The translations under genes and the position numbers were made by a program. A stretch of DNA of 64,000 bases. Origin: Candidatus Magasanikiibacteriota bacterium (GTDB taxonomy: Bacteria > Patescibacteriota > Patescibacteriia > Magasanikbacterales > UBA922). How positions within the stretch are numbered: the stretch's first letter is position 1; each line of letters starts with the position of its first letter. The stretch is from NCBI GenBank assembly GCA_041674805.1, contig JBAYVA010000002.1, positions 83,234 through 147,233 on the forward strand. The letters run 5' to 3'. The notes under the pieces are model-generated. The model ran no database searches. It was not told the origin of the DNA and saw nothing but the letters and a program-made list of their open reading frames with translations. Below, one piece after another: positions 2,195-50,089 of this stretch.

Positions 2195-3892
2195 CTACTT
2201 TAAAAAGCTAATTCCTGAGGTAAATCTTAGTTGCATTTCATCTTTTTGACTTTTACGAAGATCAAAAAATGTCTTATTTGTCAAAGGTTTATTTTGAATA
2301 ATATCAGAAATCCACTGTCCTCCCAACAAGTGTGTCATCATCACATAATTGGCTCCAGCTTCATATAAATCATCCAAATAAGTATTATGATAAAGATTAC
2401 CAATAATAATAACTTTTTTATTTATTTTTCTAATGTGTTTGAACAAAATGATTTGATCATCAGGATTAGGTATTGTACAAACTATCATTTCTGCTTTTTC
2501 CAAAGGCAAACTTTCCAAAAATTCTATATCACTAACATCCCCAAAAAATGCCGGAATATGTCTATTTTTCAAAACTTTTACTGCTTCAGGATTATAATCC
2601 ACTACCGCATATTTCATATTTTTTTCAGCAAAACCTTCACACACTTTCCAACCAATACGATGATAACCAAAAACCCAATTAGTAAAAATTTCTTCATTTT
2701 TTTCTATTTGTTTGTGCTTATCATGTCCGAACAAATTGAAGACTGGACGCAAAAATTCAAAAATCTTCTCACTATAAGTAATAAGATAAGAAGATACAAT
2801 AATAGTTGTCAAAGCGACAATAGTAAAAATTTCTAATTCTTTGCCAACCACATGTCCCAAATTTCTTCCAACAATCAAAAGCACAAAACCAAATTCACTG
2901 ACCTGAGCCGCTGTCACACCAGCCAAAAAACTATTTCTTCTTGTGAATTTTTGTGAACGAAAAGCCCAATACAAAACAAAAGGATTACCAATCAAAATAA
3001 ATAAAGATAAAATCAAACCATTTATCCAAATTCCATCCAAATTAGTAAGTGACATTTCACTACCCAAAATAATAAAAAATATCACAATAAAAAAATCACG
3101 CAAAGGTTTGATACGACTAGAAATTTCTGATTGAAAAGGCGAAGAACCAAGAGTAAGACCAGCTACTATAGCACCAATTTCCAAAGAAAAACCCAACCAA
3201 TATAACAAACTAGAAATACCAAAACACCAAGTCAAAGTAAAAATAAAAAGAAATTCACCAGACTTCGCCACACTTTGTAAAATTTTTGGAATAATATATC
3301 TCGCTGTCAGTCCAACAAATCCCAACAAAATAAATATCTTACCAACTAATTCTCCTACTTCTACCCAAATATTATTTCCTTGACCTAATGATGTCACCAT
3401 CATCATAATAAAAATAGCCACAATATCTTGTACTACCATGAGACCAATAGTATATCTACCATAAACACTTTCAGTGTCTTTTTTGTCTGCCAATAATTTT
3501 ACAATAATAATAGTACTAGAGAAAGTCAAAGCCAAAGCCAAATAAATAGCTGACGATGCTGAAAATTTCATGGCAAGAAGTATCAAAAAGCCAAGAGAAG
3601 CTGTAAATATTACTTGGGCCATACCTGTAATGACCGCAACTTTACCAATACTCTTGATATGTTGAATATTGAGACTTAAACCTACCACAAACAAAAGCAA
3701 CACAACACCAAATTCAGCCAAAGCATCAAAAGTATGTCCACCTTCTTGCAACAAATTCAAAAACATCGGACCAGCAATAATGCCAGCAATCAGATAAGAA
3801 ATTAAAAGTGGTTGTTTTAACAAACGCAATACAAAAGCTACAGAAACAGTAATACCAAGCAAAGCAGAAATTTGAAGAAAAATATTATCCAT
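2195..3892 (-). CDS. Monovalent cation:proton antiporter-2 (CPA2, KefB/KefC-like) with C-terminal RCK/TrkA-N domain
   Basis: About 12 predicted TM segments in the Na+/H+ exchanger fold. The C-terminal part, VVDYNPEAVKVLKNRHIPAFFGDVSDIEFLE...AEMIVCTIP, is a Rossmann RCK domain. Confidence 0.8.
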   Translation of the reverse strand: MDNIFLQISALLGITVSVAFVLRLLKQPLLISYLIAGIIAGPMFLNLLQEGGHTFDALAEFGVVLLLFVVGLSLNIQHIKSIGKVAVITGMAQVIFTASLGFLILLAMKFSASSAIYLALALTFSSTIIIVKLLADKKDTESVYGRYTIGLMVVQDIVAIFIMMMVTSLGQGNNIWVEVGELVGKIFILLGFVGLTARYIIPKILQSVAKSGEFLFIFTLTWCFGISSLLYWLGFSLEIGAIVAGLTLGSSPFQSEISSRIKPLRDFFIVIFFIILGSEMSLTNLDGIWINGLILSLFILIGNPFVLYWAFRSQKFTRRNSFLAGVTAAQVSEFGFVLLIVGRNLGHVVGKELEIFTIVALTTIIVSSYLITYSEKIFEFLRPVFNLFGHDKHKQIEKNEEIFTNWVFGYHRIGWKVCEGFAEKNMKYAVVDYNPEAVKVLKNRHIPAFFGDVSDIEFLESLPLEKAEMIVCTIPNPDDQIILFKHIRKINKKVIIIGNLYHNTYLDDLYEAGANYVMMTHLLGGQWISDIIQNKPLTNKTFFDLRKSQKDEMQLRFTSGISFLK

Positions 3893-3953: not shown

Positions 3954-6900
3954 TTATTTAGAAATAAATTTTTTAATCAATTTTTTTATTTTTGAAAAAA
4001 TATTTTCTCCATTACTTTTCAAAAAAAGTCCAAACAAAATAGCAGTAAAACCACCAGCTGTAGCTGTTAAATATTTTTCAACAATATCCGCGTTGTCTTG
4101 CTCTTTGGCTTTTTCTTTTTTTGTTACCAAATCTTCACTAACACCTGTTTTAATAATATCATTTTGATCACGTGGCAACAATTGATATTCTGTTTTTGTT
4201 TGATGAAGTAGTCCAGTAATACTTACTAAATTACCTTCTTCAAATATATCTTTTTTTATACCAGCTCCTCTCTTAAAATATACTTTTATTTCCTCAGTTC
4301 CATCGTCTACATACATATAAGAACTTTTTATTTCTGTAATTTCACCACTTACCAAAATAAGACTACCTTCATATTGTTCCCCCACATCTTCTAATTCCAA
4401 GACTCTACCAATTGGTAATTCACTATGTCCCAATTTTTTTATATCATTTTTTTCTTTTAATTTTATTCTAGTTTCACCAGAAGTTTCTGTAATTTCTCCC
4501 ATAACTTCTATTTTGTCTCCCCTTTTTAAATCTGGAAAATCTTTACTAAACATATAAATTTGTACACCAGCATTTTCAGAAACTATATAAAAAATTTGTG
4601 TACCCATTATACCTGGTTCTACTGCTACTGTACCTGTCACACTAATCATATCACCCAAATCTTCATCACGTATTTTTTCTAAACTAGTGTTTATAACTGC
4701 TTTCACTGAATTACTCTTACTTTTTACTATTTTAACGGATTTTACTTCTGTTATTTCTTCTACAAAATTTACCTCACCAGGGCTAATAATTTTATTCCAA
4801 ATCCAGTTACCTTCACTATTACGAACATAAGAGGCTCCTTCTATTACATCATCAAATCTTACTTCCATTATAATAGTTCCATCAGGATACAAAAGACGCA
4901 CAGAATCACTAGTGTTATTCAAAGCCAACTTTGTATCTTGGCGACCAAAGACTTTATATTCTTTAGCTTTTATCAAAGTATTAGCTCCTACAGTATAAGC
5001 TTTTGATCCACCTTCTTCATCATCAATTTTTAAACCCGAAATATCAACATCTTCTTCTGTAGGATTGTGAATTTCAATAAATTCAGTAGTATCTGAACCT
5101 ACTGGATTTGGCAAAATCTCTGAAATGTACAAAACAGATATATCACTTGTTCCAGCATAACCACCCACAAAATCTTGAGACAATTTTACACTTAAAACAA
5201 CATCCTTTTTACTTTCATTACTACCATCACTTACTGTCAAAGATACAGTATAAACTCCTTGTTGCAAAAATTTATGTTCTACACTCGCGCCATCTTCATC
5301 AGTCCCATCAGCAAAATCCCAATGAAATTTTAAATCTTTTCCTTCTGGACTAACAGTATCAGAAGCATCAAATTTCACCCATTCATTTACAGCTACTTCG
5401 GTATCTACATCAAGTGCAATAATTGGTGCTGCACTTTTACCTTCTACTATGTTTTTGCTTCCAGCAGTAATTTTACTACTCCATACCCAAGTAGCATCAT
5501 CTTGCCTCACATAACTAAAAGAATCACTAGCACTACCAGGATAACTTACACTATTTACGATTGCCCCATTTGGAGAAAATAATTTTACTTCATCTCCTCC
5601 TGTATTATTTAGAGCTATTTGTGTCATAGTTCTTTTGAAAACAATGAATTCATTTGCTTTCAATACACCTTGTTTTATTGTATATTTTTTCTTACTAGAA
5701 TCAGATAATTGCCAATCTTTCAAATCAATAGTTTCTGTACCTTTATTCCAAATTTCAATAAACTCATCATCACTATCACTACCTGGAGGATTTGGATAAA
5801 TTTCATTCAAAACTATGTTTGTTTGCAAAGAAAAAATTTCTTGTTTTTCCAAATCTTCAGCTTTTAAAGATAAAACATTTTTTTGTCCCCTAGTAATAGT
5901 ATCTGTAATTATAAAATCATAATAATCATTATCAGCATCTTGTCCATCTGTTTTTCTTATCAACGAATATGGATCACTTGCCACAGCAGCATTATCATAA
6001 GTATTACCATCATCCCAATTGCCATAAGTAACTTTATCTATTTCTTTTTTACTAGGATCTAATAATAACAAAATATCACCAGCATTATTGAGACTTCCTT
6101 TTGGTTCCTCAATTACAAAAAAACCTTTAGGCAAAATAGTCCCTGTCAAAATCGTAATTGTTTCACTACCATCTTCCAAAGACCAATCATTTAAATCAAT
6201 AATTTCTGAAGTGTTGTTATATATTTCTACGAATTCTTTTTCTCCATCACTAGGATCAGAAACCAACTCGTTTATGACCAAATCTCGTGCATTATAATTT
6301 TTTGTTGTTACTTCAGAACTAGAAGACGAACCTCCACCAGAACTAGAAACTGGAATATTTTTAATAATATTGACTTCACCTGGCGTTGGTTCTGTGGTAA
6401 TAGAAAAATCATTTTTATTATTTCCCGTGTTTTGACCATCCACGATTCTCGCCACAGAATAAGGATCACTGTGTGCAGGAGCGTTGTCTGAAATATCTTC
6501 ATCAAAAAAATCTATCCAATCACCAAAACGCACTGTGTCTATCAAATTACCAGAATTATCATACAAAAAAATACCATCACCATCATTGTTCAATTTACTA
6601 GACAAAATATTTACTCGCAAAAAACTTTTTGTTTCCAAAATATTATCCAAAACCAAAATTTTTTTTGTGCTACTACTACTTTTGTCACCTTCGTGCACTT
6701 CCCAATCTTTCAAATCAATAGTAGAGGTAGAATTATTATATATTTCTACCCATTCATTTTCACCAGCCACAGGATCACTTACAAATTCATTAATAACTAT
6801 TTCATAATTAGGAATAGTATTTGTCGTGGTAGTAGTACTTTCAAAATTTTCTACTATACTAAAGTTAAAAATGTCACTTGCAAAATCATTTTTATCATCT

Positions 6901-7697
6901 ATAACTTTTAATTCAAGACTAAAGTTGCCAATATCAGAAAAAATATATGAAAAAAAAGAACTAGTTGATAAAAGTATATTATCAAACAACCAATTATACT
7001 CTACTATTTGGCCATCACTATCACTAGAAGTACTACCATCAAAATCTACAGCTTTTGATTTTTGAAAAATGTTTCCACTTGTAACAATTTTGGCAACAGG
7101 TTTTTGATTTTGAATATCATTATTATCTAAAGACCAATAATTTTTTTGTCCTACCGAATTATTGTCTGGATGTTCTTGCCAATTATCAATATTATTTATT
7201 GGCTGAAATACATCCATTCTTTCCAAAGAATGATTATTTTGGATGGCTTTATAAACAAAATTTTCTATGAAACTATCATCTTTTTTTAAACCTATTTCTT
7301 CTCCACCCTTGTTCAAAGTTGTCCAAGAACTGTCCAAAATTAAAGAAGAAAAATTTGGATATCTCTCAAAAAAATTCAAATCATTTTGAGTAATTACAGC
7401 GTATCCTTTTGGAGCTAAAATAAAAGTTTGAAACAAACTTTTTTCACTAATATTTAAACTATGATTAGTATCTGCTTCCCAAAATTTCCAGCCAGTCAAA
7501 TCCATACTTTCATCACCTTTGTTATAAATTTCTATCCACTGAAAACCACTTTCAGCACAACCAGTAGGACAAATTTCTGTAATCACCACATCATTATCAG
7601 AACCAAAAACAAAATTTTTAAATAAAAAAACACTCAATATAAGTGCTAAAAAAAACAAACTAAATTTTCTTAATTTAATAAAAAAAATTTTAATCAT
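3954..7697 (-). CDS. Giant secreted/membrane-anchored protein with multiple lamin-tail (LTD) domains, a PKD domain and a C-terminal OB-fold
   Basis: N-terminal signal/TM. At least five LTD-like repeats: VITEICPTG..WIEIYNKGDESMDLTGW, NEFVSDPVAGENEWVEIYNNS..DLKDW, INELVSDPSDGEKEFVEIYNNT, LNEIYPNPPGSDSDDEFIEIWNKG, ISEILPNPVGSDTTEFIEIHNPT. PKD-like HWDFADGTDEDGASVEHKF..YTVSLTVSDG. C-terminal OB-fold (ISVTGTVAVEPGIMGTQIFYIVSENAGVQIYMF) followed by a TM helix. Confidence 0.8.
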   Translation of the reverse strand: MIKIFFIKLRKFSLFFLALILSVFLFKNFVFGSDNDVVITEICPTGCAESGFQWIEIYNKGDESMDLTGWKFWEADTNHSLNISEKSLFQTFILAPKGYAVITQNDLNFFERYPNFSSLILDSSWTTLNKGGEEIGLKKDDSFIENFVYKAIQNNHSLERMDVFQPINNIDNWQEHPDNNSVGQKNYWSLDNNDIQNQKPVAKIVTSGNIFQKSKAVDFDGSTSSDSDGQIVEYNWLFDNILLSTSSFFSYIFSDIGNFSLELKVIDDKNDFASDIFNFSIVENFESTTTTTNTIPNYEIVINEFVSDPVAGENEWVEIYNNSTSTIDLKDWEVHEGDKSSSSTKKILVLDNILETKSFLRVNILSSKLNNDGDGIFLYDNSGNLIDTVRFGDWIDFFDEDISDNAPAHSDPYSVARIVDGQNTGNNKNDFSITTEPTPGEVNIIKNIPVSSSGGGSSSSSEVTTKNYNARDLVINELVSDPSDGEKEFVEIYNNTSEIIDLNDWSLEDGSETITILTGTILPKGFFVIEEPKGSLNNAGDILLLLDPSKKEIDKVTYGNWDDGNTYDNAAVASDPYSLIRKTDGQDADNDYYDFIITDTITRGQKNVLSLKAEDLEKQEIFSLQTNIVLNEIYPNPPGSDSDDEFIEIWNKGTETIDLKDWQLSDSSKKKYTIKQGVLKANEFIVFKRTMTQIALNNTGGDEVKLFSPNGAIVNSVSYPGSASDSFSYVRQDDATWVWSSKITAGSKNIVEGKSAAPIIALDVDTEVAVNEWVKFDASDTVSPEGKDLKFHWDFADGTDEDGASVEHKFLQQGVYTVSLTVSDGSNESKKDVVLSVKLSQDFVGGYAGTSDISVLYISEILPNPVGSDTTEFIEIHNPTEEDVDISGLKIDDEEGGSKAYTVGANTLIKAKEYKVFGRQDTKLALNNTSDSVRLLYPDGTIIMEVRFDDVIEGASYVRNSEGNWIWNKIISPGEVNFVEEITEVKSVKIVKSKSNSVKAVINTSLEKIRDEDLGDMISVTGTVAVEPGIMGTQIFYIVSENAGVQIYMFSKDFPDLKRGDKIEVMGEITETSGETRIKLKEKNDIKKLGHSELPIGRVLELEDVGEQYEGSLILVSGEITEIKSSYMYVDDGTEEIKVYFKRGAGIKKDIFEEGNLVSITGLLHQTKTEYQLLPRDQNDIIKTGVSEDLVTKKEKAKEQDNADIVEKYLTATAGGFTAILFGLFLKSNGENIFSKIKKLIKKFISK

Positions 7698-19915: not shown

Positions 19916-21283
19916 TTAATGATTATGACCTGTATGATCTTCGTGATCTTCTTCTGCCATGGCATGTCCGTGAGAATGTTCTTCATGCTTATGTCTTTCA
20001 CCTTCTACTAATTTATCTGCCAAAAAGTTTACAACTTTTTTATTTAATAGCATGTTGTGAATAGAATCAAGTACTTCTGGTTTTTTCAAATTTTCTAGAT
20101 ACTCAGCAGTTTCTTTGTAGTATTCACGTAGATTTTTTACTTCAGCATCTAATTCATCTTTGGAAATAGTTAGACTGTGTGCTAGAGCTACTTCACGAGA
20201 AAGCAATGAAGCTTTGGCTCTATCAGTTGCTTTGTTTCTAAAATCTTCTTGTAATTCTTTTTCATTTTTTTTGATGTCTTGTAAATATTGTTCAATTGTT
20301 ACACCATGTTTTTCTAAATCATGTTGTAATTCATAAAACATTTTTTTGAGTTCAGCTTCTACTAACACTTCTGGAATTTCTTCAAATTTAGTTTCTTTGA
20401 TCAATGTTTCAAACATTTCTATTTCAGCTATTTCATCAGCTTTGTGTTCAGCTTCGTGAGTCAAATTTTCTTTGATTAGGTCTTTTAATTTGTCTAAACT
20501 TTCTTGTCCTAATACTTTGGCAAAAGCATCGTCTGCTTTTGGTATTTCTCTACCAAAAACTTCTTTTACTTTTACTTTGAATTTGCCAGTTTTACCAGCT
20601 AATTGTGCACTATAATAATTTTTTGGAAAAGGTAAATCAAATTCTTTTTCATCACCTTTTTCTAAACCAATCAAAGCATCATTGAAACCAGGGATATGTT
20701 GATGATCTTCTGATAAATAAACATTGTAATCAATAGCCTGTCCACCTTCTACTGGTACTCCATCCAAAAACAAATTCATATCTATAACGATCTTGTCTTC
20801 TTTTGTTGCTTTGCCTTTTTTGATTACTTCTTTTGCTTGCATTTTTAATAAATTATCAATAGTTTCATTTACTGATTGATCATTTACTTCTTTGACTGTT
20901 CTTTTTATTTTGATTGATTCTAATTTTGGTAATTCAACTTTTGGTAACAAAGCTACTTTGGCAGAATAAACTAAATCATTAGCAGGTGCCATTTTTTGAA
21001 TATTGATATCTGGCATGCCAATAGTATTTAATTTTTCAGCTGTTACAGTTTGATAAAAACTGTCTTGGATAATATCTTCCAAAGCTTCTTGCAAAAGTTT
21101 CATTTCACCTACTTCTTGTTTGACCATTTCAAAAGGAGCTTTGCCTTTGCGGAAACCTCTAATAGCTACACGATTTGAAATAGTAGTAGCTGCTTTTTCT
21201 AAATGTTTTTGATAATCTTTTGGACTAACTGTAATAGTAAGTTCAATTTGTGATTTTTCTAATTTTTCTATTTTGTGTTCCAT
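19916..21283 (-). CDS. tig: Trigger factor (ribosome-associated chaperone/PPIase) with His-rich C-terminal tail
   Basis: N-terminal ribosome-binding signature GFRKGKAP, a central FKBP-like domain, and a C-terminal tail ERHKHEEHSHGHAMAEEDHEDHTGHNH. Confidence 0.9.
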   Translation of the reverse strand: MEHKIEKLEKSQIELTITVSPKDYQKHLEKAATTISNRVAIRGFRKGKAPFEMVKQEVGEMKLLQEALEDIIQDSFYQTVTAEKLNTIGMPDINIQKMAPANDLVYSAKVALLPKVELPKLESIKIKRTVKEVNDQSVNETIDNLLKMQAKEVIKKGKATKEDKIVIDMNLFLDGVPVEGGQAIDYNVYLSEDHQHIPGFNDALIGLEKGDEKEFDLPFPKNYYSAQLAGKTGKFKVKVKEVFGREIPKADDAFAKVLGQESLDKLKDLIKENLTHEAEHKADEIAEIEMFETLIKETKFEEIPEVLVEAELKKMFYELQHDLEKHGVTIEQYLQDIKKNEKELQEDFRNKATDRAKASLLSREVALAHSLTISKDELDAEVKNLREYYKETAEYLENLKKPEVLDSIHNMLLNKKVVNFLADKLVEGERHKHEEHSHGHAMAEEDHEDHTGHNH

Positions 21284-21300
21284 ACTTTATTTTTTAAAAC

Positions 21301-21345
21301 GCGGAATTACGCGGACTTTTACGCGGATAGACGCGGAAAGTGACC
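21301..21345. repeat. Four phased direct repeats of the GC-rich heptamer ACGCGGA in the tig leader
   Basis: ACGCGGAatt ACGCGGActttt ACGCGGAtag ACGCGGAaag, with spacing 10/12/10 bp. The 20-mer TTACGCGGATAGACGCGGAA recurs exactly at 43445-43464. Confidence 0.8.
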
Positions 21346-21381
21346 AAAATAATGCGTTTATTTTTGATTAAAAAGTGGCTA

Positions 21382-21410
21382 TAATATAGCTTGTTTTGCT
21401 TGAAATGTCA
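21382..21410 (-). promoter_or_regulatory. Sigma70-type promoter for tig
   Basis: On the minus strand: TTGACA (21410-21405), 17-bp spacer, TATATT (21387-21382). Confidence 0.6.
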
Positions 21411-21416
21411 ACTGTT

Positions 21417-21459
21417 GGCAAGCAGAGTAAGCAAAGTAAGCAGAATAGGCATAATAAGT
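21417..21459. repeat. 43-bp promoter-proximal element with 9-bp-phased TAAGCA units (copy 1)
   Basis: GCAAGCAGAGTAAGCAAAGTAAGCAGAATAGGCATAATAAGT. A near-identical inverted copy (38/43) lies at 24971-25013. Confidence 0.8.
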
Positions 21460-21508
21460 TTTTGACGAGGATATTTTTTGGTGTTATTGTTTGTTGCGGA
21501 GGTGAGAA

Positions 21509-21646
21509 ATGAAAGAATTTCTTGAGACCCTCATCGGCATTCTCGCTTCCCTTTTTTGGGGAGCGGTGTTCGCCGTTTTCCTCTTTGATGAGGAAGCGGC
21601 GGCGACCTTCCTGCGAGGGGAGGTCAAATATGTCACGGGGGTTTGA
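21509..21646 (+). CDS. Small hydrophobic peptide (45 aa) inside the GC-rich island; SD-led
   Basis: GGAGGTGAgaaATG. Translation MKEFLETLIGILASLFWGAVFAVFLFDEEAAATFLRGEVKYVTGV has one TM helix plus a charged tail. Not in the ORF table because it is under 60 aa. Local GC is about 55%, versus about 30% for the genome. Confidence 0.4.
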   Translation: MKEFLETLIGILASLFWGAVFAVFLFDEEAAATFLRGEVKYVTGV

Positions 21647-21727
21647 AAAGGAGGGCGGTCCGGGCGTACGTGCGCGGACCAAACTCATAAATTAAGACCG
21701 TTTTTCTTTATTGAAAGACGGTTTTTT

Positions 21728-21976
21728 TTGACAGTTCATTTTTTTGTAGTAGTTTTTAAATATCTTCCACGGAAGGAGGTGGTTGTGGGTGGTGAGAGCC
21801 CCTTTCATACGCTGATCCAGTGTCCAAACTGTAGGCGTTATACGGACTCAAGAGAGTTCGAAACGCTGACAAAAGATGGGGGAGAGTACAAAAAGTGCCC
21901 ATATTGTGGGTGGTCACATCTTGTGTCTATGCCCTCGGCGTACTTTAAGTATAGGAGGGACGATGGAATTAATTAG
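21728..21976 (+). CDS. Small CxxC...CxxC zinc-ribbon protein inside the GC-rich island (likely true start GTG at 21782, 64 aa)
   Basis: GGAAGGAGGTggttGTG. ...SPFHTLIQCPNCRRYTDSREFETLTKDGGEYKKCPYCGWSHLV. The two Cys pairs form a zinc ribbon. Confidence 0.45.
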   Translation: MTVHFFVVVFKYLPRKEVVVGGESPFHTLIQCPNCRRYTDSREFETLTKDGGEYKKCPYCGWSHLVSMPSAYFKYRRDDGIN

Positions 21977-22063
21977 GTAAGGGGTGGGGAAGGTGGATGC
22001 GCGCGACTTCTACGAAAGTGGTTGTCGTGCGCGTTCGTTCAAATAAAAAATAAAATTTTAAAA

Positions 22064-22099
22064 TTAAAAAAACACTCTCAAATTGAGAGTGTTTTTTAT
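22064..22099. terminator. Bidirectional Rho-independent terminator (GC-island transcript / hppA)
   Basis: A-run, then hairpin ACACTCTC-AAATT-GAGAGTGT, then T6. Confidence 0.75.
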
Positions 22100-22119
22100 T
22101 TCAGTTTAAATCAATGCTT

Positions 22120-24108
22120 TTATTTTAACAAACCAATTATGAGCAAAGCCACAATGTTAGCCACTTTGATCATAGGATTGATTGCAGGGCCAGCTGTGTC
22201 CTTGTAAGGGTCACCTACAGTGTCACCAGTGACAGCAGCTTGATGTGCAAAACTTCCTTTACCACCGTGATTGCCTTCTTCAATATATTTTTTTGCATTG
22301 TCCCAAGCACCACCACCAGTAGTCATAGAAATTGCGACGAATAGACCGGTGATAATAGTACCAACAAGCAAACCACCAAGAGCAGCAGCACCCAAGAAAT
22401 AACCAACTAAGATTGGAGCTACAACAGGGATAACTGCTGGTAAAATCATTTGACCAATAGCACCTTTAGTTACTATATCTACTGTTTTGGCATAGTCAGG
22501 TTTGGCTTGACCTTCCATAATACCTTTGATTTCACGGAATTGTCTGCGAACTTCTTCTACTACACTACCAGCTACTTTACCTACTGATTGCATTAGTAAT
22601 GAACCAAATAAGTAAGGAAGCAAACCACCAATAAATAAACCTGTCAAAACTTTTGGATCATCAATTCTAAATACTGTACTGATACCTTCTGCATCAAGTT
22701 TGTGTGTGAAATCTGCAAATAATACTAGAGCAGCTAGAGCAGCTGAAGCGATAGCATAACCTTTGGTAACAGCTTTTGTGGTGTTGCCAACAGCATCTAG
22801 CGGATCTGTAACATTTCTAACATCTTCTCCAAGTTCTGCCATTTCGGCGATACCACCAGCATTGTCAGTGATAGGTCCATAAGCGTCGATTGCTACGACA
22901 ATACCAGTAAGAGAAAGCATAGACATAGCAGCGATAGCTACTCCGTAAAGTCCCATGAAGTGATAAGCTACAAGCATACCGGCGACAATAGCCAATACTG
23001 GCAAAGCAGTTGATTTCATGGATACTGCTAGACCTGTGATGACATTGGTACCATGACCTGTTTCACTAGATTTTGCAATTTGTTTTACAGGAGCATATTT
23101 GGTTGAAGTATAATATTCAGTAATCCAAACCATAGCACCAGTAAGTACGATACCAACTACAGTTGTCCAGAAAACATCAGCAGTAGTCGCATTTAAATCA
23201 GCAGCGTAGTGTCTACTCAAGAAAAAGAAACCAATTATTGAGAAAAGGCCAGACATTATTAGACCTTTGTACAAAGCTCCCATGATGTTGTTCTTTTTGC
23301 CAAGTCTGATGAAGAAACTTCCAAAGATTGAAGCAATAATAGAAATAGCTCCAAGCATAAGAGGAAACATAATACCTGCAGTAGTACCAACAAAAGTAAG
23401 TCCACCAAGTACCATCGCAGCGACAGCTGTTACTGCATAAGTTTCAAACAAGTCAGCAGCCATACCAGCACAGTCACCGACGTTGTCACCGACGTTGTCA
23501 GCAATTACAGCTGGATTACGAGGATCATCTTCTGGAATACCTTTTTCTACTTTTCCAACTAAATCAGCTCCGACGTCAGCAGCTTTGGTAAAAATACCAC
23601 CACCGATACGAGCGAATATTGAGATAAGACTACCACCGAAAGCTAATCCAATAAGAGCATCTAGGTCTTTGGTCAATAAATAAAAACCAGCAACTCCCAA
23701 AAGTCCAAGACCAACTACGAGTAAACCAGTAACAGTACCACCTTTGACAGCTACATCTAAAGCAGCTTTTAAACCTTTTTTGGCAGCTTCAGTAGTACGA
23801 ACATTGGCTTTGACAGATACATTCATACCTACAAAACCAGCAATTCCAGAGAAAAGAGCTCCAACTAGGAAACCTAGTCCAGTCATCCAGCCTAAAGTTA
23901 GTCCAAGAACCAAGAAAACAAGGATAGCTACATAAGAAATAGTCTTATATTGGCGAGCCAAATAAGCTTTGGCACCTTCTTGGATAGCGCGAGCAATATT
24001 TTGCATGCGTTCTGATCCTGTAGGCTGTTTGTTTATCCATTGAATTAAAAAGATACCGTAACCAATCGCCAAAACGGCTGGTCCGATAAGCAGTAGTGTT
24101 GTTAGCAT
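22120..24108 (-). CDS. hppA: Membrane-bound proton/sodium-translocating pyrophosphatase
   Basis: 662 aa, about 16 TM. Signature [22 protein letters not shown] and the conserved motif EYYTS are present. Confidence 0.9.
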
Positions 24109-24898: not shown

Positions 24899-24970
24899 AA
24901 ATATATAGATAAAGTAATTAAAGTATATCTCTTTGTCTTTGTCTAGTCAAAAGCTAATAATTTTAAGGTA

Positions 24971-25013
24971 ACTTATTCTGCCTATTTTGCTTACTTTGCT
25001 TATTTTGCTTGCT
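24971..25013. repeat. 43-bp promoter-proximal element (copy 2, inverted relative to copy 1)
   Basis: Reverse complement is GCAAGCAAAATAAGCAAAGTAAGCAAAATAGGCAGAATAAGT. It overlaps the polA -35. Confidence 0.8.
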
Positions 25014-43444: not shown

Positions 43445-43464
43445 TTACGCGGATAGACGCGGAA
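43445..43464. repeat. TTACGCGGATAGACGCGGAA (two ACGCGGA units) 16 bp upstream of the thyA start
   Basis: Exact copy of the 20-mer in the tig leader (21321-21340). Confidence 0.8.
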
Positions 43465-49438: not shown

Positions 49439-50089
49439 TTATTCTATATTTATTTTATCTCCCAAAAACTTTGGTTGAATATCAAATAATAAATCAAGCA
49501 TCATTTTGAGTCGTGCGAAGCTTTCCCTGATTTGTATTTTTGTATTAGCATAAGATTTTACATTACGAGCATTGTATCCTATAGCGTCTATACCTTTTTT
49601 GTTGGCAATATATATGGCACGTTCATTGTGGAATTTTTGTGAGATGATAGTAATATTCTCTTGTCCAAATATTTCTTTGCTTCGGACGACTGAGTCTAGA
49701 GTTCGAAAGCCAGCATAATCGAGGAAGATGCTCGAAGTCGGCACGCCAGCTTCTATCAAATCATTTTGAATAGTTGTTGGTTCATTGTATTTCTTTGTGC
49801 TGTTGTCTCCACTTACTAAAATAAAATCAATTTTGTTAGCTTCAAAAAGTTTTTTGGCAGCTGTAATTCTATAAGCATAATAAGCATTTATTCTGCCATC
49901 TTTCAAATATTTACTTGTGCCGAGTAATAATCCGACTTTGTTGTGAGGAATATTTTCTATTGAATCATAAATTTTTTCGTCAGTGTTTTTTTCTATTATT
50001 TTGTTGGTGATAATAATAGATGAAGAAAGAAAAATAAAACTCAAGAAAAAAATTAGTAAAAGTTTTAAGAATATTTTTTTCATAATCAA
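49439..50089 (-). CDS. SanA/YdcF/ElyC (DUF218) family protein
   Basis: N-terminal TM. ILVSGDNSTKKYNEPTTIQNDLIEAGVP...DYAGFRTLDSVVRSKEIFG. Confidence 0.7.
   Translation of the reverse strand: MIMKKIFLKLLLIFFLSFIFLSSSIIITNKIIEKNTDEKIYDSIENIPHNKVGLLLGTSKYLKDGRINAYYAYRITAAKKLFEANKIDFILVSGDNSTKKYNEPTTIQNDLIEAGVPTSSIFLDYAGFRTLDSVVRSKEIFGQENITIISQKFHNERAIYIANKKGIDAIGYNARNVKSYANTKIQIRESFARLKMMLDLLFDIQPKFLGDKINIE

Follow-up and report, generated by a model that had tools for sequence, protein, structure and literature searches.

A probable lineage-specific, Shine-Dalgarno-led gene for a small membrane peptide beside an exchangeable cassette in the hppA-tig gap of a Candidatus Magasanikbacteria subclade

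The DNA considered here is a stretch of 64,000 nucleotides from a Candidatus Magasanikiibacteriota bacterium (assembly GCA_041674805.1, contig JBAYVA010000002.1, positions 83,234 to 147,233 of the forward strand; hereafter the window, with position 1 as its first letter), in which the genes tig (19916-21283, minus strand) and hppA, encoding a membrane pyrophosphatase (22120-24108, minus strand), are separated by a gap of 836 nt where the public annotation of the source contig calls no gene at all. This gap contains a GC-rich island with two self-contained plus-strand units, here named unit 1 and unit 2, each of them provided with its own promoter and terminator. The reading that we favour, with somewhat more confidence than doubt and from comparison of sequences, is that the island joins a lineage-specific small membrane peptide gene dependent on a Shine-Dalgarno (SD) sequence (unit 1) to an exchangeable cassette (unit 2), both lodged, in one subclade of Candidatus Magasanikbacteria, in the space that runs from the terminator of hppA to the promoter of tig. 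The tig protein of the window recurs unchanged on ERZ27247358 k141_2249070. The unit 1 product is predicted by structure modelling to carry an N-terminal membrane-type helix followed by a short second helix, and its function may be type-I-toxin-like or that of a membrane modulator. Lineage-specific small membrane-protein genes and structured messengers of small open reading frames (ORFs) are known kinds to which this gene belongs, the family itself being new and unannotated.

Unit 1 was followed through eight alleles (the window and loci L012, L016, L029, L003, L021, L004 and L038), which were gathered through synteny with tig, one pattern scan of metagenomes and contigs of Magasanikbacteria relatives encoding close hppA homologues. 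All eight keep the promoter, the GGAGGTG motif, a frame of 43-45 codons, a purine-rich motif, a hairpin, the AAACTC motif and a terminator, the terminators of the other alleles being equivalent and of different sequences. The promoter is nearly invariant, and the coding sequences go down to amino-acid identities as low as 14-40%; with respect to the window allele, identity drops to 35-42% for the peptide and to 45-58% for the nucleotide sequence. Pairwise ratios of nonsynonymous to synonymous substitution (dN/dS) range from 0.15 to 0.93 and stay below 1 in every computable pair. Moreover, differences at codon positions 1, 2 and 3 amount to 0.43, 0.37 and 0.51 (0.27, 0.19 and 0.38 in the closer group), and the remaining two frames are not kept open across alleles. 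Because frame, SD and start are conserved, dN/dS lies below 1 and codon periodicity is present, we take it as settled, on these comparative grounds, that unit 1 is a genuine protein-coding gene, previously unannotated. The original prediction, which was made from the window alone and proposed a single-helix membrane peptide for the first of two small ORFs, was right in this respect, as eight alleles with dN/dS below 1 and a third-position peak attest. It had also named RNA covariation in relatives without conservation of the ORF as the pattern that would speak against it; the ORF turned out to be conserved, though the 3' hairpin does covary.

That the island is non-coding, with one or two structured RNAs and merely incidental ORFs, is in our opinion very improbable. 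Its high GC content, the excess of G over C on the plus strand, fold z-scores of -6 to -7 and the lack of any called gene in the source contig would all fit such a view, and unit 2, a single sequence, could still be read in this way. In unit 1, however, frame, length, SD and start codon have been kept through 40-60% nucleotide divergence together with the substitution pattern just described, and a search of Rfam found no match even at E-values up to 10. The gene is annotated in none of the records examined. In the L021 locus (6312-6662, GCA_028687045.1) the public annotation places over it a 116-aa ORF that reads in the opposite direction, likely a mis-call arising from stop-poor GC-rich sequence. 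A conserved small-protein family has in this way been left unannotated by any pipeline, and composition-trained gene callers miss such genes of the candidate phyla radiation (CPR).

The encoded peptide is acidic, with a net charge of -3 to -6. Its maximum Kyte-Doolittle score over 19 residues is 2.46 in the window and 1.96-2.46 in six of the seven alleles scored (all but L038), which places the hydrophobic stretch above the usual threshold in these six and below it in the L004 allele (1.27). A single-sequence AF2 model (pLDDT 82.7) shows a hydrophobic helix at residues 2-25, a turn and a second helix at residues 28-43, and a product of this form would insert into the membrane or lie on it, and act there. 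A word-index protein search gave no candidates for this peptide. A reading as an AgrD-like pheromone precursor was dropped: it offers no more than a resemblance, and no processing gene lies nearby.

The second pillar of the argument is the translation signal. No SD-like motif precedes 43 of the 45 window ORFs of at least 120 aa, with a mean duplex energy with ACCUCCUUU of +0.2 kcal/mol, about the background level; energies were scored against this canonical 16S rRNA tail, from which the 3' end of the host lineage's own 16S may differ. Both island ORFs are strongly SD-led (-10.8 kcal/mol for unit 1 and -13.6 kcal/mol for unit 2, the latter the strongest value in the window), as originally claimed, and in a scan of SD and start combinations over the 64 kb no further small ORF between genes proved to be SD-led. 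An SD-like start (AAGGGGGGAAT ATG, -10.7 kcal/mol) is also seen at 3954-7697 on the minus strand, in the gene of a 1247-aa surface-type protein with Lamin-tail and PKD domains, and the only other long window ORF with such a start is one of 214 aa at 49439-50083, where the motif GGAG is weaker (-6.6 kcal/mol). In all eight alleles of unit 1 the GGAGGTG motif is invariant and lies 3-6 nt before the ATG. From this invariance, our sole guide on the point, we infer that the unit 1 SD is functional. Because the motif is invariant ahead of a fast-evolving ORF, it would also constitute indirect evidence that the ribosomes of this host retain a working anti-SD, even with nearly all host genes ignoring it, which bears on the open question of how translation is initiated in Parcubacteria.

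The composition of the island is equally atypical. The window as a whole has 30.7% GC, and the segment 21480-22060, with 46.8%, represents the maximum among all its 581-nt windows (z = 3.8; the next best value elsewhere is 42.5%). The three richest 200-nt windows (53-54%) all fall inside the island, where local 50-nt values reach 54-60%. The earlier figure of about 55% GC over 0.55 kb was overstated, since two blocks of about 50% (21497-21735 and 21771-22045) are separated by a spacer of 25%, although the segment is indeed the richest of the window; the contention that both composition and translation signals are foreign to the host holds in so far as both are atypical for it, with this GC maximum and the strong SDs. 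Both of the small ORFs are also present as described, the second with 63 rather than 64 codons, and the hairpins and terminators reported behind them were recovered with refined limits (Table 1).

Messenger structure offers a further line of evidence. Compared with dinucleotide shuffles, the plus-strand folds of units 1 and 2 reach z-scores of -6.2 and -6.8. A stricter test permuted synonymous codons among identical amino acids, so that protein and codon content were preserved, and the unit 1 coding sequence was more stable than its permutations in six of the seven alleles tested (z of -2.6 to -5.7, with at most 2.5% of permutations equalling it). In the window this sequence has a minimum free energy of -65 kcal/mol over 138 nt (z -3.8); two unit 2 ORFs give about -2.1 and host gene segments from -1.2 to +0.8. 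After the stop codon, the 3' hairpin with its GAG/CUC clamp has 86.9% of its cells paired over the eight alleles, versus 16-45% in slid controls, and shows seven pairs changed on both sides, values that none of 500 shuffles reached. Coding-region helices with compensatory, often synonymous, changes are common to the group of window, L012, L016 and L029. Judged from these comparisons, unit 1 is under selection both for its protein and for its RNA structure, and the excess of folding over synonymous permutations makes it a clear case of the two acting on one short gene.

A covariance model built on the 3' element matched only unit 1 loci, with no extra copy in 207 kb. Rfam yielded nothing but tRNAs at gathering score over the 64-kb window, and no family for 21250-22150 with E-values up to 10, where the best match (E = 0.09) was driven by the terminator. 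The earlier suggestion that the island could be a structured RNA was partly borne out: the messenger body and the 3' hairpin are structurally selected, but within a conserved ORF and outside any Rfam family. On a related alternative, unit 1 would be a dual-function RNA whose transcript, or a hairpin-terminator fragment from its 3' end, is regulatory, with the peptide as a second product. We find this distinctly unlikely. The selection of synonymous sites for folding speaks for it, as do the better conservation of the 5' leader and the 3' element than of the coding sequence and a covarying hairpin flanked by invariant AAGGAGG and AAACUC; against it, no target is known, the coding helices do not keep one register in all alleles, and neither an Rfam match nor a second copy in the 207 kb appeared. 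A module of AAGGAGG, hairpin and AAACUC at the 3' end of all cassettes was also considered, on account of a visual similarity with the ends of unit 2 and of the GC-rich gene of L003, and set aside, with the covariance model matching unit 1 only and the similarity remaining loose.

In every locus that has it, unit 1 points towards the 3' end of hppA, and the HppA of these genomes shares at least 90% identity with that of the window. Relatives with hppA at 84-85% identity have an hppA-tig gap of only 139-168 nt, with just the terminator and the tig promoter; unit 1 is missing from all the relatives whose hppA stands at 85% identity or lower (76-85%), and in the L022 locus (hppA 97%) it is also absent, with a sortase gene directly after hppA. 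All the real matches of the metagenome pattern scan lay at the hppA-tig locus. Because it always sits at the hppA 3' end and the covariance model detects no further copy, unit 1 is, on the sampled loci, a fixed single-copy insertion in one subclade and not a dispersed repeat. The idea of horizontal acquisition survives to the extent that the insertion is subclade-specific, and not in the sense of a recent transfer, the unit being conserved with allelic variation.

The alleles themselves are mosaics. L012 and L029, which come from the same sample, are 97-100% identical over 150 nt through the SD and 50-83% identical immediately after it, their hppA 3' ends being 95.5% identical, and a window-type coding sequence (83-97% identical to L012) lies behind a different upstream repeat array. 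The window and L021, its closest hppA relative (99% protein identity), share 89% identity towards hppA and 77% towards tig, with an alignment that runs to 21766 and cannot be extended over 21767-22054. These alignments show that strains exchange the coding segment by recombination in the conserved arms on either side of it, promoter and SD at the 5' end and hairpin at the 3' end. Such allele replacement would suit a membrane peptide that is competitive, toxin-like or specific for a partner more than it would a housekeeping function.

A partner at hand would be the neighbouring Na+/H+-pyrophosphatase, with unit 1 as a small membrane protein that modulates it in the way known from AcrZ, MgtS or KdpF, an improbable option to which we give only a small chance. 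Unit 1 adjoins and converges with the hppA 3' end in the eight alleles, even when the other flank differs (L024 and L025 have there the start of a different gene, MKQKQ..., instead of tig, and L003 has an extra gene), and its architecture of membrane-type helix plus short helix would suit the role. Yet unit 1 is not co-transcribed with hppA, hppA genes at 76-85% identity and the one at 97% do without it, allele replacement is hard to square with a nearly invariant partner (hppA 90-99% identical), and the adjacency may only mirror an insertion site.

The gene could alternatively be a type I toxin, with a folded mRNA held in check by an undetected antisense or trans-acting small RNA (sRNA), for which read-through from the convergent hppA would be a candidate; we consider this unlikely. 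The small hydrophobic-helix peptide (45 aa, below 60 aa), the intergenic position, the narrow distribution with allelic diversity and an exceptionally structured mRNA are all features in its favour, and so is the convergence with hppA in all alleles, with the hppA terminator shared in L029. The evidence to the contrary begins with the second RNA: a weak consensus scan of 21460-22100, which a non-canonical promoter may have escaped, found no promoter-like site on the minus strand, the only one being the tig promoter at 21411-21383, and L004, L016 and L029 leave no room for a separate convergent gene. Moreover, the SD is not consistently sequestered, its predicted unpaired probability lying anywhere between 0.09 and 0.83 according to the allele, with the window allele at 0.83. 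The peptide is acidic, whereas most of the type I toxins known so far have a neutral or positive charge; its gene is single copy and matches no toxin family. A hok-like fold-back of 5' on 3' end hiding the SD was set aside as unsupported: some minimum-free-energy structures pair the GAG of the SD with a 3' CUC, but accessibility is inconsistent across alleles. No literature was found on type I toxins in Patescibacteria or on the hppA-tig locus.

The segment between the terminators of unit 1 and hppA is a variable slot, for which five states were recorded over the alleles. In the window it holds the zinc-ribbon ORF (cassette 21767-22054); in L021 and L003, a membrane-type (transmembrane) protein with the motif DYKRRMTDKPW; in L012, AT-rich ORFs of 39 and 304 aa; and in L038 (about 2440-2660, on the hppA strand, opposite to unit 1), an SD-led (GGAGGGATC ATG) basic ORF of 55 aa followed by a long hairpin. 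In L004, L016 and L029 the slot is empty and unit 1 abuts the hppA terminator. The unit 2 promoter (TTGACA...TAGTTT) is common to the window, L003 and L021, with unrelated ORFs downstream. By this comparison unit 2 represents an expression slot of its own, whose promoter is conserved, whose terminator is shared and whose insert varies by strain. Since its content varies or is absent next to unit 1, the sequences do not support a role for unit 2 as functional partner, and the proposed module of a toxin with a Zn-ribbon partner loses its basis, unit 1 being alone in three alleles and beside unrelated neighbours in others. Attenuation of unit 2 by unit 1, acting as a leader peptide, was also discarded: what follows unit 1 differs from strain to strain or is missing, and unit 2 carries a promoter of its own.

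The zinc-ribbon ORF itself has the form CxxC-X21-CxxC, with cysteines at C13/C16 and C38/C41, and its single-sequence AF2 model is a five-strand ribbon (pLDDT 71 overall, 75-85 over residues 10-48) whose top Foldseek matches are zinc ribbons, all non-significant (the best one, ZifS 8yoz, with E 0.12). No homologue was found among 5.8 billion clustered proteins with a word index, a full HMMER search of 1.84 billion representatives brought up long Cys-repeat proteins and nothing else, and Pfam scores stayed below cut-off (19.6 versus 28.5 bits for DUF7575, 18.9 versus 27 for Zn_ribbon_3).

A horizontally acquired pair of toxin and Zn ribbon, or a regulatory pair derived from a phage or plasmid, was the interpretation put forward initially, and two units of similar design and atypical composition standing side by side do recall such a module. 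We now hold it for extremely improbable, with five slot states beside unit 1, a promoter and a terminator for each unit, a Zn ribbon without homologues and no phage, plasmid or viral match. In this line, blastn of the island against phage and plasmid collections gave no match, nor did a DNA-pattern scan of viral contigs; four viral stretches matched the zinc-ribbon peptide pattern and none was confirmed by tblastn, PHROG matches were limited to generic Cys motifs, and PADLOC had no family for any of the five island and slot proteins tested. Integron cassettes were considered as well. By consensus, such a cassette consists of an ORF lacking a promoter and an attC site of 57-141 nt, and lies beside an integrase and attI; here both units come with a promoter and a terminator, the hairpins measure 22-44 nt, and there is no integrase among the genes called nearby.

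Several points weigh against our reading of an SD-dependent membrane peptide gene with an exchangeable cassette. About half of the Parcubacteria 16S genes lack the anti-SD motif (PMC9297842). The L004 allele is AT-rich, weakly hydrophobic and not unusually structured (z -0.3), the coding-region structure is not in one register over all alleles, and the variable accessibility of the SD leaves a single translational-control fold unsupported. The zinc-ribbon ORF is probably translated, and is an orphan represented by a single sequence. Because the fold excess is strong, the register is not shared by all alleles and SD accessibility is inconsistent, selection seems to favour a compact, stable mRNA body over one specific translational switch. 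With these points in mind, the favoured reading would work as follows: the unit 1 transcript would be a compact, nuclease-resistant mRNA, and ribosomes would enter it only via SD-anti-SD pairing, because the AU-rich unstructured entry of host genes would be unavailable, before the peptide reaches the membrane.

A broader version of this reading would make the hppA-tig gap a recombination hot spot for a class of mini-genes, each with a promoter, a canonical SD and a small ORF in a hyper-stable fold, its stop codon followed by a purine-rich motif and a hairpin; the retained anti-SD would then be a private translation channel in a cell that starts its own genes without SD, and unit 1 would encode a polymorphic, toxin-like or strain-discriminating membrane peptide, with alleles swapped via its SD and 3'-hairpin arms. 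We put this forward as a speculation that is unlikely as a whole. Apart from it, two loci deserve description. In L036 (hppA 81%) a different SD-led, GC-rich ORF of 70 aa (5178-5390, minus strand) converges with hppA, with AGGGAGG and possibly an ORF of 20 aa behind it, which suggests that mini-genes of this sort gather at the 3' flank of hppA in several lineages of Magasanikbacteria and not in a single one. In L003 (2771-3601, equivalent to L026 6792-7607) an 830-nt insert with a GC content estimated at roughly 58% separates the tig promoter from unit 1, against 33-39% GC for the host genome, with a consensus TTGACA-17-TATAAT promoter ahead. Its likely gene is a 264-aa ORF on the tig strand, where public annotation calls a 271-aa antisense frame; this ORF has no Pfam, PHROG or PADLOC match, and beyond its stop codon come AAGGAGGG, a hairpin and AGACUCAAAAA, in resemblance to the 3' end of unit 1.

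Table 1. Features of the hppA-tig island (positions in the window)
Feature	Position	Strand	Basis
Unit 1 promoter: -35 TTGACG, 17-nt spacer, TG-extended -10 TATTGT	21462-21490	+	Promoter scan
Unit 1 SD GGAGGTG, 4 nt 5' of ATG	21498-21504	+	Duplex energy -10.8 kcal/mol
Unit 1 coding sequence, 45-aa acidic peptide MKEFLETLIGILASLFWGAVFAVFLFDEEAAATFLRGEVKYVTGV	21509-21646	+	ORF and comparative
Unit 1 3' element: AAGGAGG, hairpin 21657-21680 (GGTCCGGGC...GCGCGGACC), AAACTC; GAG/CUC as basal clamp	21648-21686	+	
Unit 1 intrinsic terminator, GACCG...CGGTC stem and T8	21696-21729	+	Sequence reading, fold
Unit 2 promoter TTGACA-16 nt-TAGTTT	21728-21755	+	Sequence reading
Unit 2 SD AAGGAGGTG, 3 nt 5' of GTG	21773-21781	+	Duplex energy -13.6 kcal/mol
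Unit 2 coding sequence, 63-aa CxxC...CxxC zinc-ribbon ORF, GTG start	21785-21976	+	ORF list
Unit 2 3' hairpin, 13+4 bp, GAAA loop, purine-rich run GGGGTGGGGAAGGTGG ahead	21995-22038	+	Fold; single instance
Bidirectional intrinsic terminator, common to unit 2 (+) and hppA (-)	22067-22097	.	Terminator scan; kept at hppA 3' end in all relatives

The surroundings of the tig promoter offer a panorama of short repeats. The heptad ACGCGGA occurs eight times in the window, versus 0.57 expected. Four copies at 10-12-nt spacing are found in the tig leader (21299-21337), between the tig -10 and the ATG, and two more, 3 nt apart (43447-43463), just upstream of thyA (43480). Degenerate copies occupy the same place in L003, L004, L021 and L029, with none in L038. 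In appearance the array recalls a direct-repeat operator or a set of sites for RNA-protein binding; a link of these heptads with GCGCGGA, one arm of the hairpin of unit 1, was tried and fails in L004. A second array, with a period of 9 nt (AGCAGAGTA AGCAAAGTA AGCAGAATA GGCATAATA), lies at 21418-21460, just upstream of the tig -35, and recurs upstream of polA (24970-25012) in the same orientation relative to the promoter, as well as in L021 and L004; other strains have in the same place a different short-repeat array, ACGTGGTA-like or ATACGTG-like. Finally, an element of roughly 40 nt (CCTCCTTC...GCTACGGCGG[GA]CA[GA]G) appears at differing positions of the spacer between tig and unit 1 in L003 (about 2655-2690) and L029 (about 3565-3605), and may be a small mobile or repeated element.

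Among known systems, the messengers of type I toxins such as hok, tisB, fst, txpA and aapA1 share with unit 1 an intergenic gene with its own promoter for a hydrophobic-helix peptide of less than 60 aa, a very stable mRNA fold, a narrow and patchy distribution and allelic diversity, and differ from it in that unit 1 has no detectable antisense or divergent sRNA gene, an inconsistently sequestered SD, an acidic product, a single copy and no relationship to a toxin family. AcrZ, MgtS, KdpF and CydX are likewise proteins of 40-50 aa with an N-terminal membrane-type helix plus a second one, encoded beside a membrane transporter gene, whereas unit 1 is convergent with hppA instead of in the same operon, hppA occurs without it, and its coding sequence is allelically replaced. 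As in SgrS/SgrT, RNAIII/hld and SR1/SR1P, a short transcript (about 235 nt for unit 1) encodes a peptide and a conserved RNA structure; unlike them, unit 1 has no identified base-pairing target or seed, and its structure is spread over the coding sequence, with no separate regulatory domain. ZifS (TTHA0897, PDB 8yoz) has, like unit 2, two CxxC knuckles and fits the beta-ribbon model (Foldseek probability 0.92, 30% identity over 37 columns), but at an E-value of 0.12, for a protein below all Pfam zinc-ribbon cut-offs and with no database homologue. In Flavobacteriia, rpsU is a gene with a strong SD in an SD-poor genome. The island resembles this case in having a strong canonical SD on very few genes, initiation being otherwise SD-independent, and departs from it in that its genes are accessory orphan small ORFs, not a ribosomal protein gene, with no known autoregulatory logic. 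In both situations, a strong SD on few genes implies a special translational regime for those genes.

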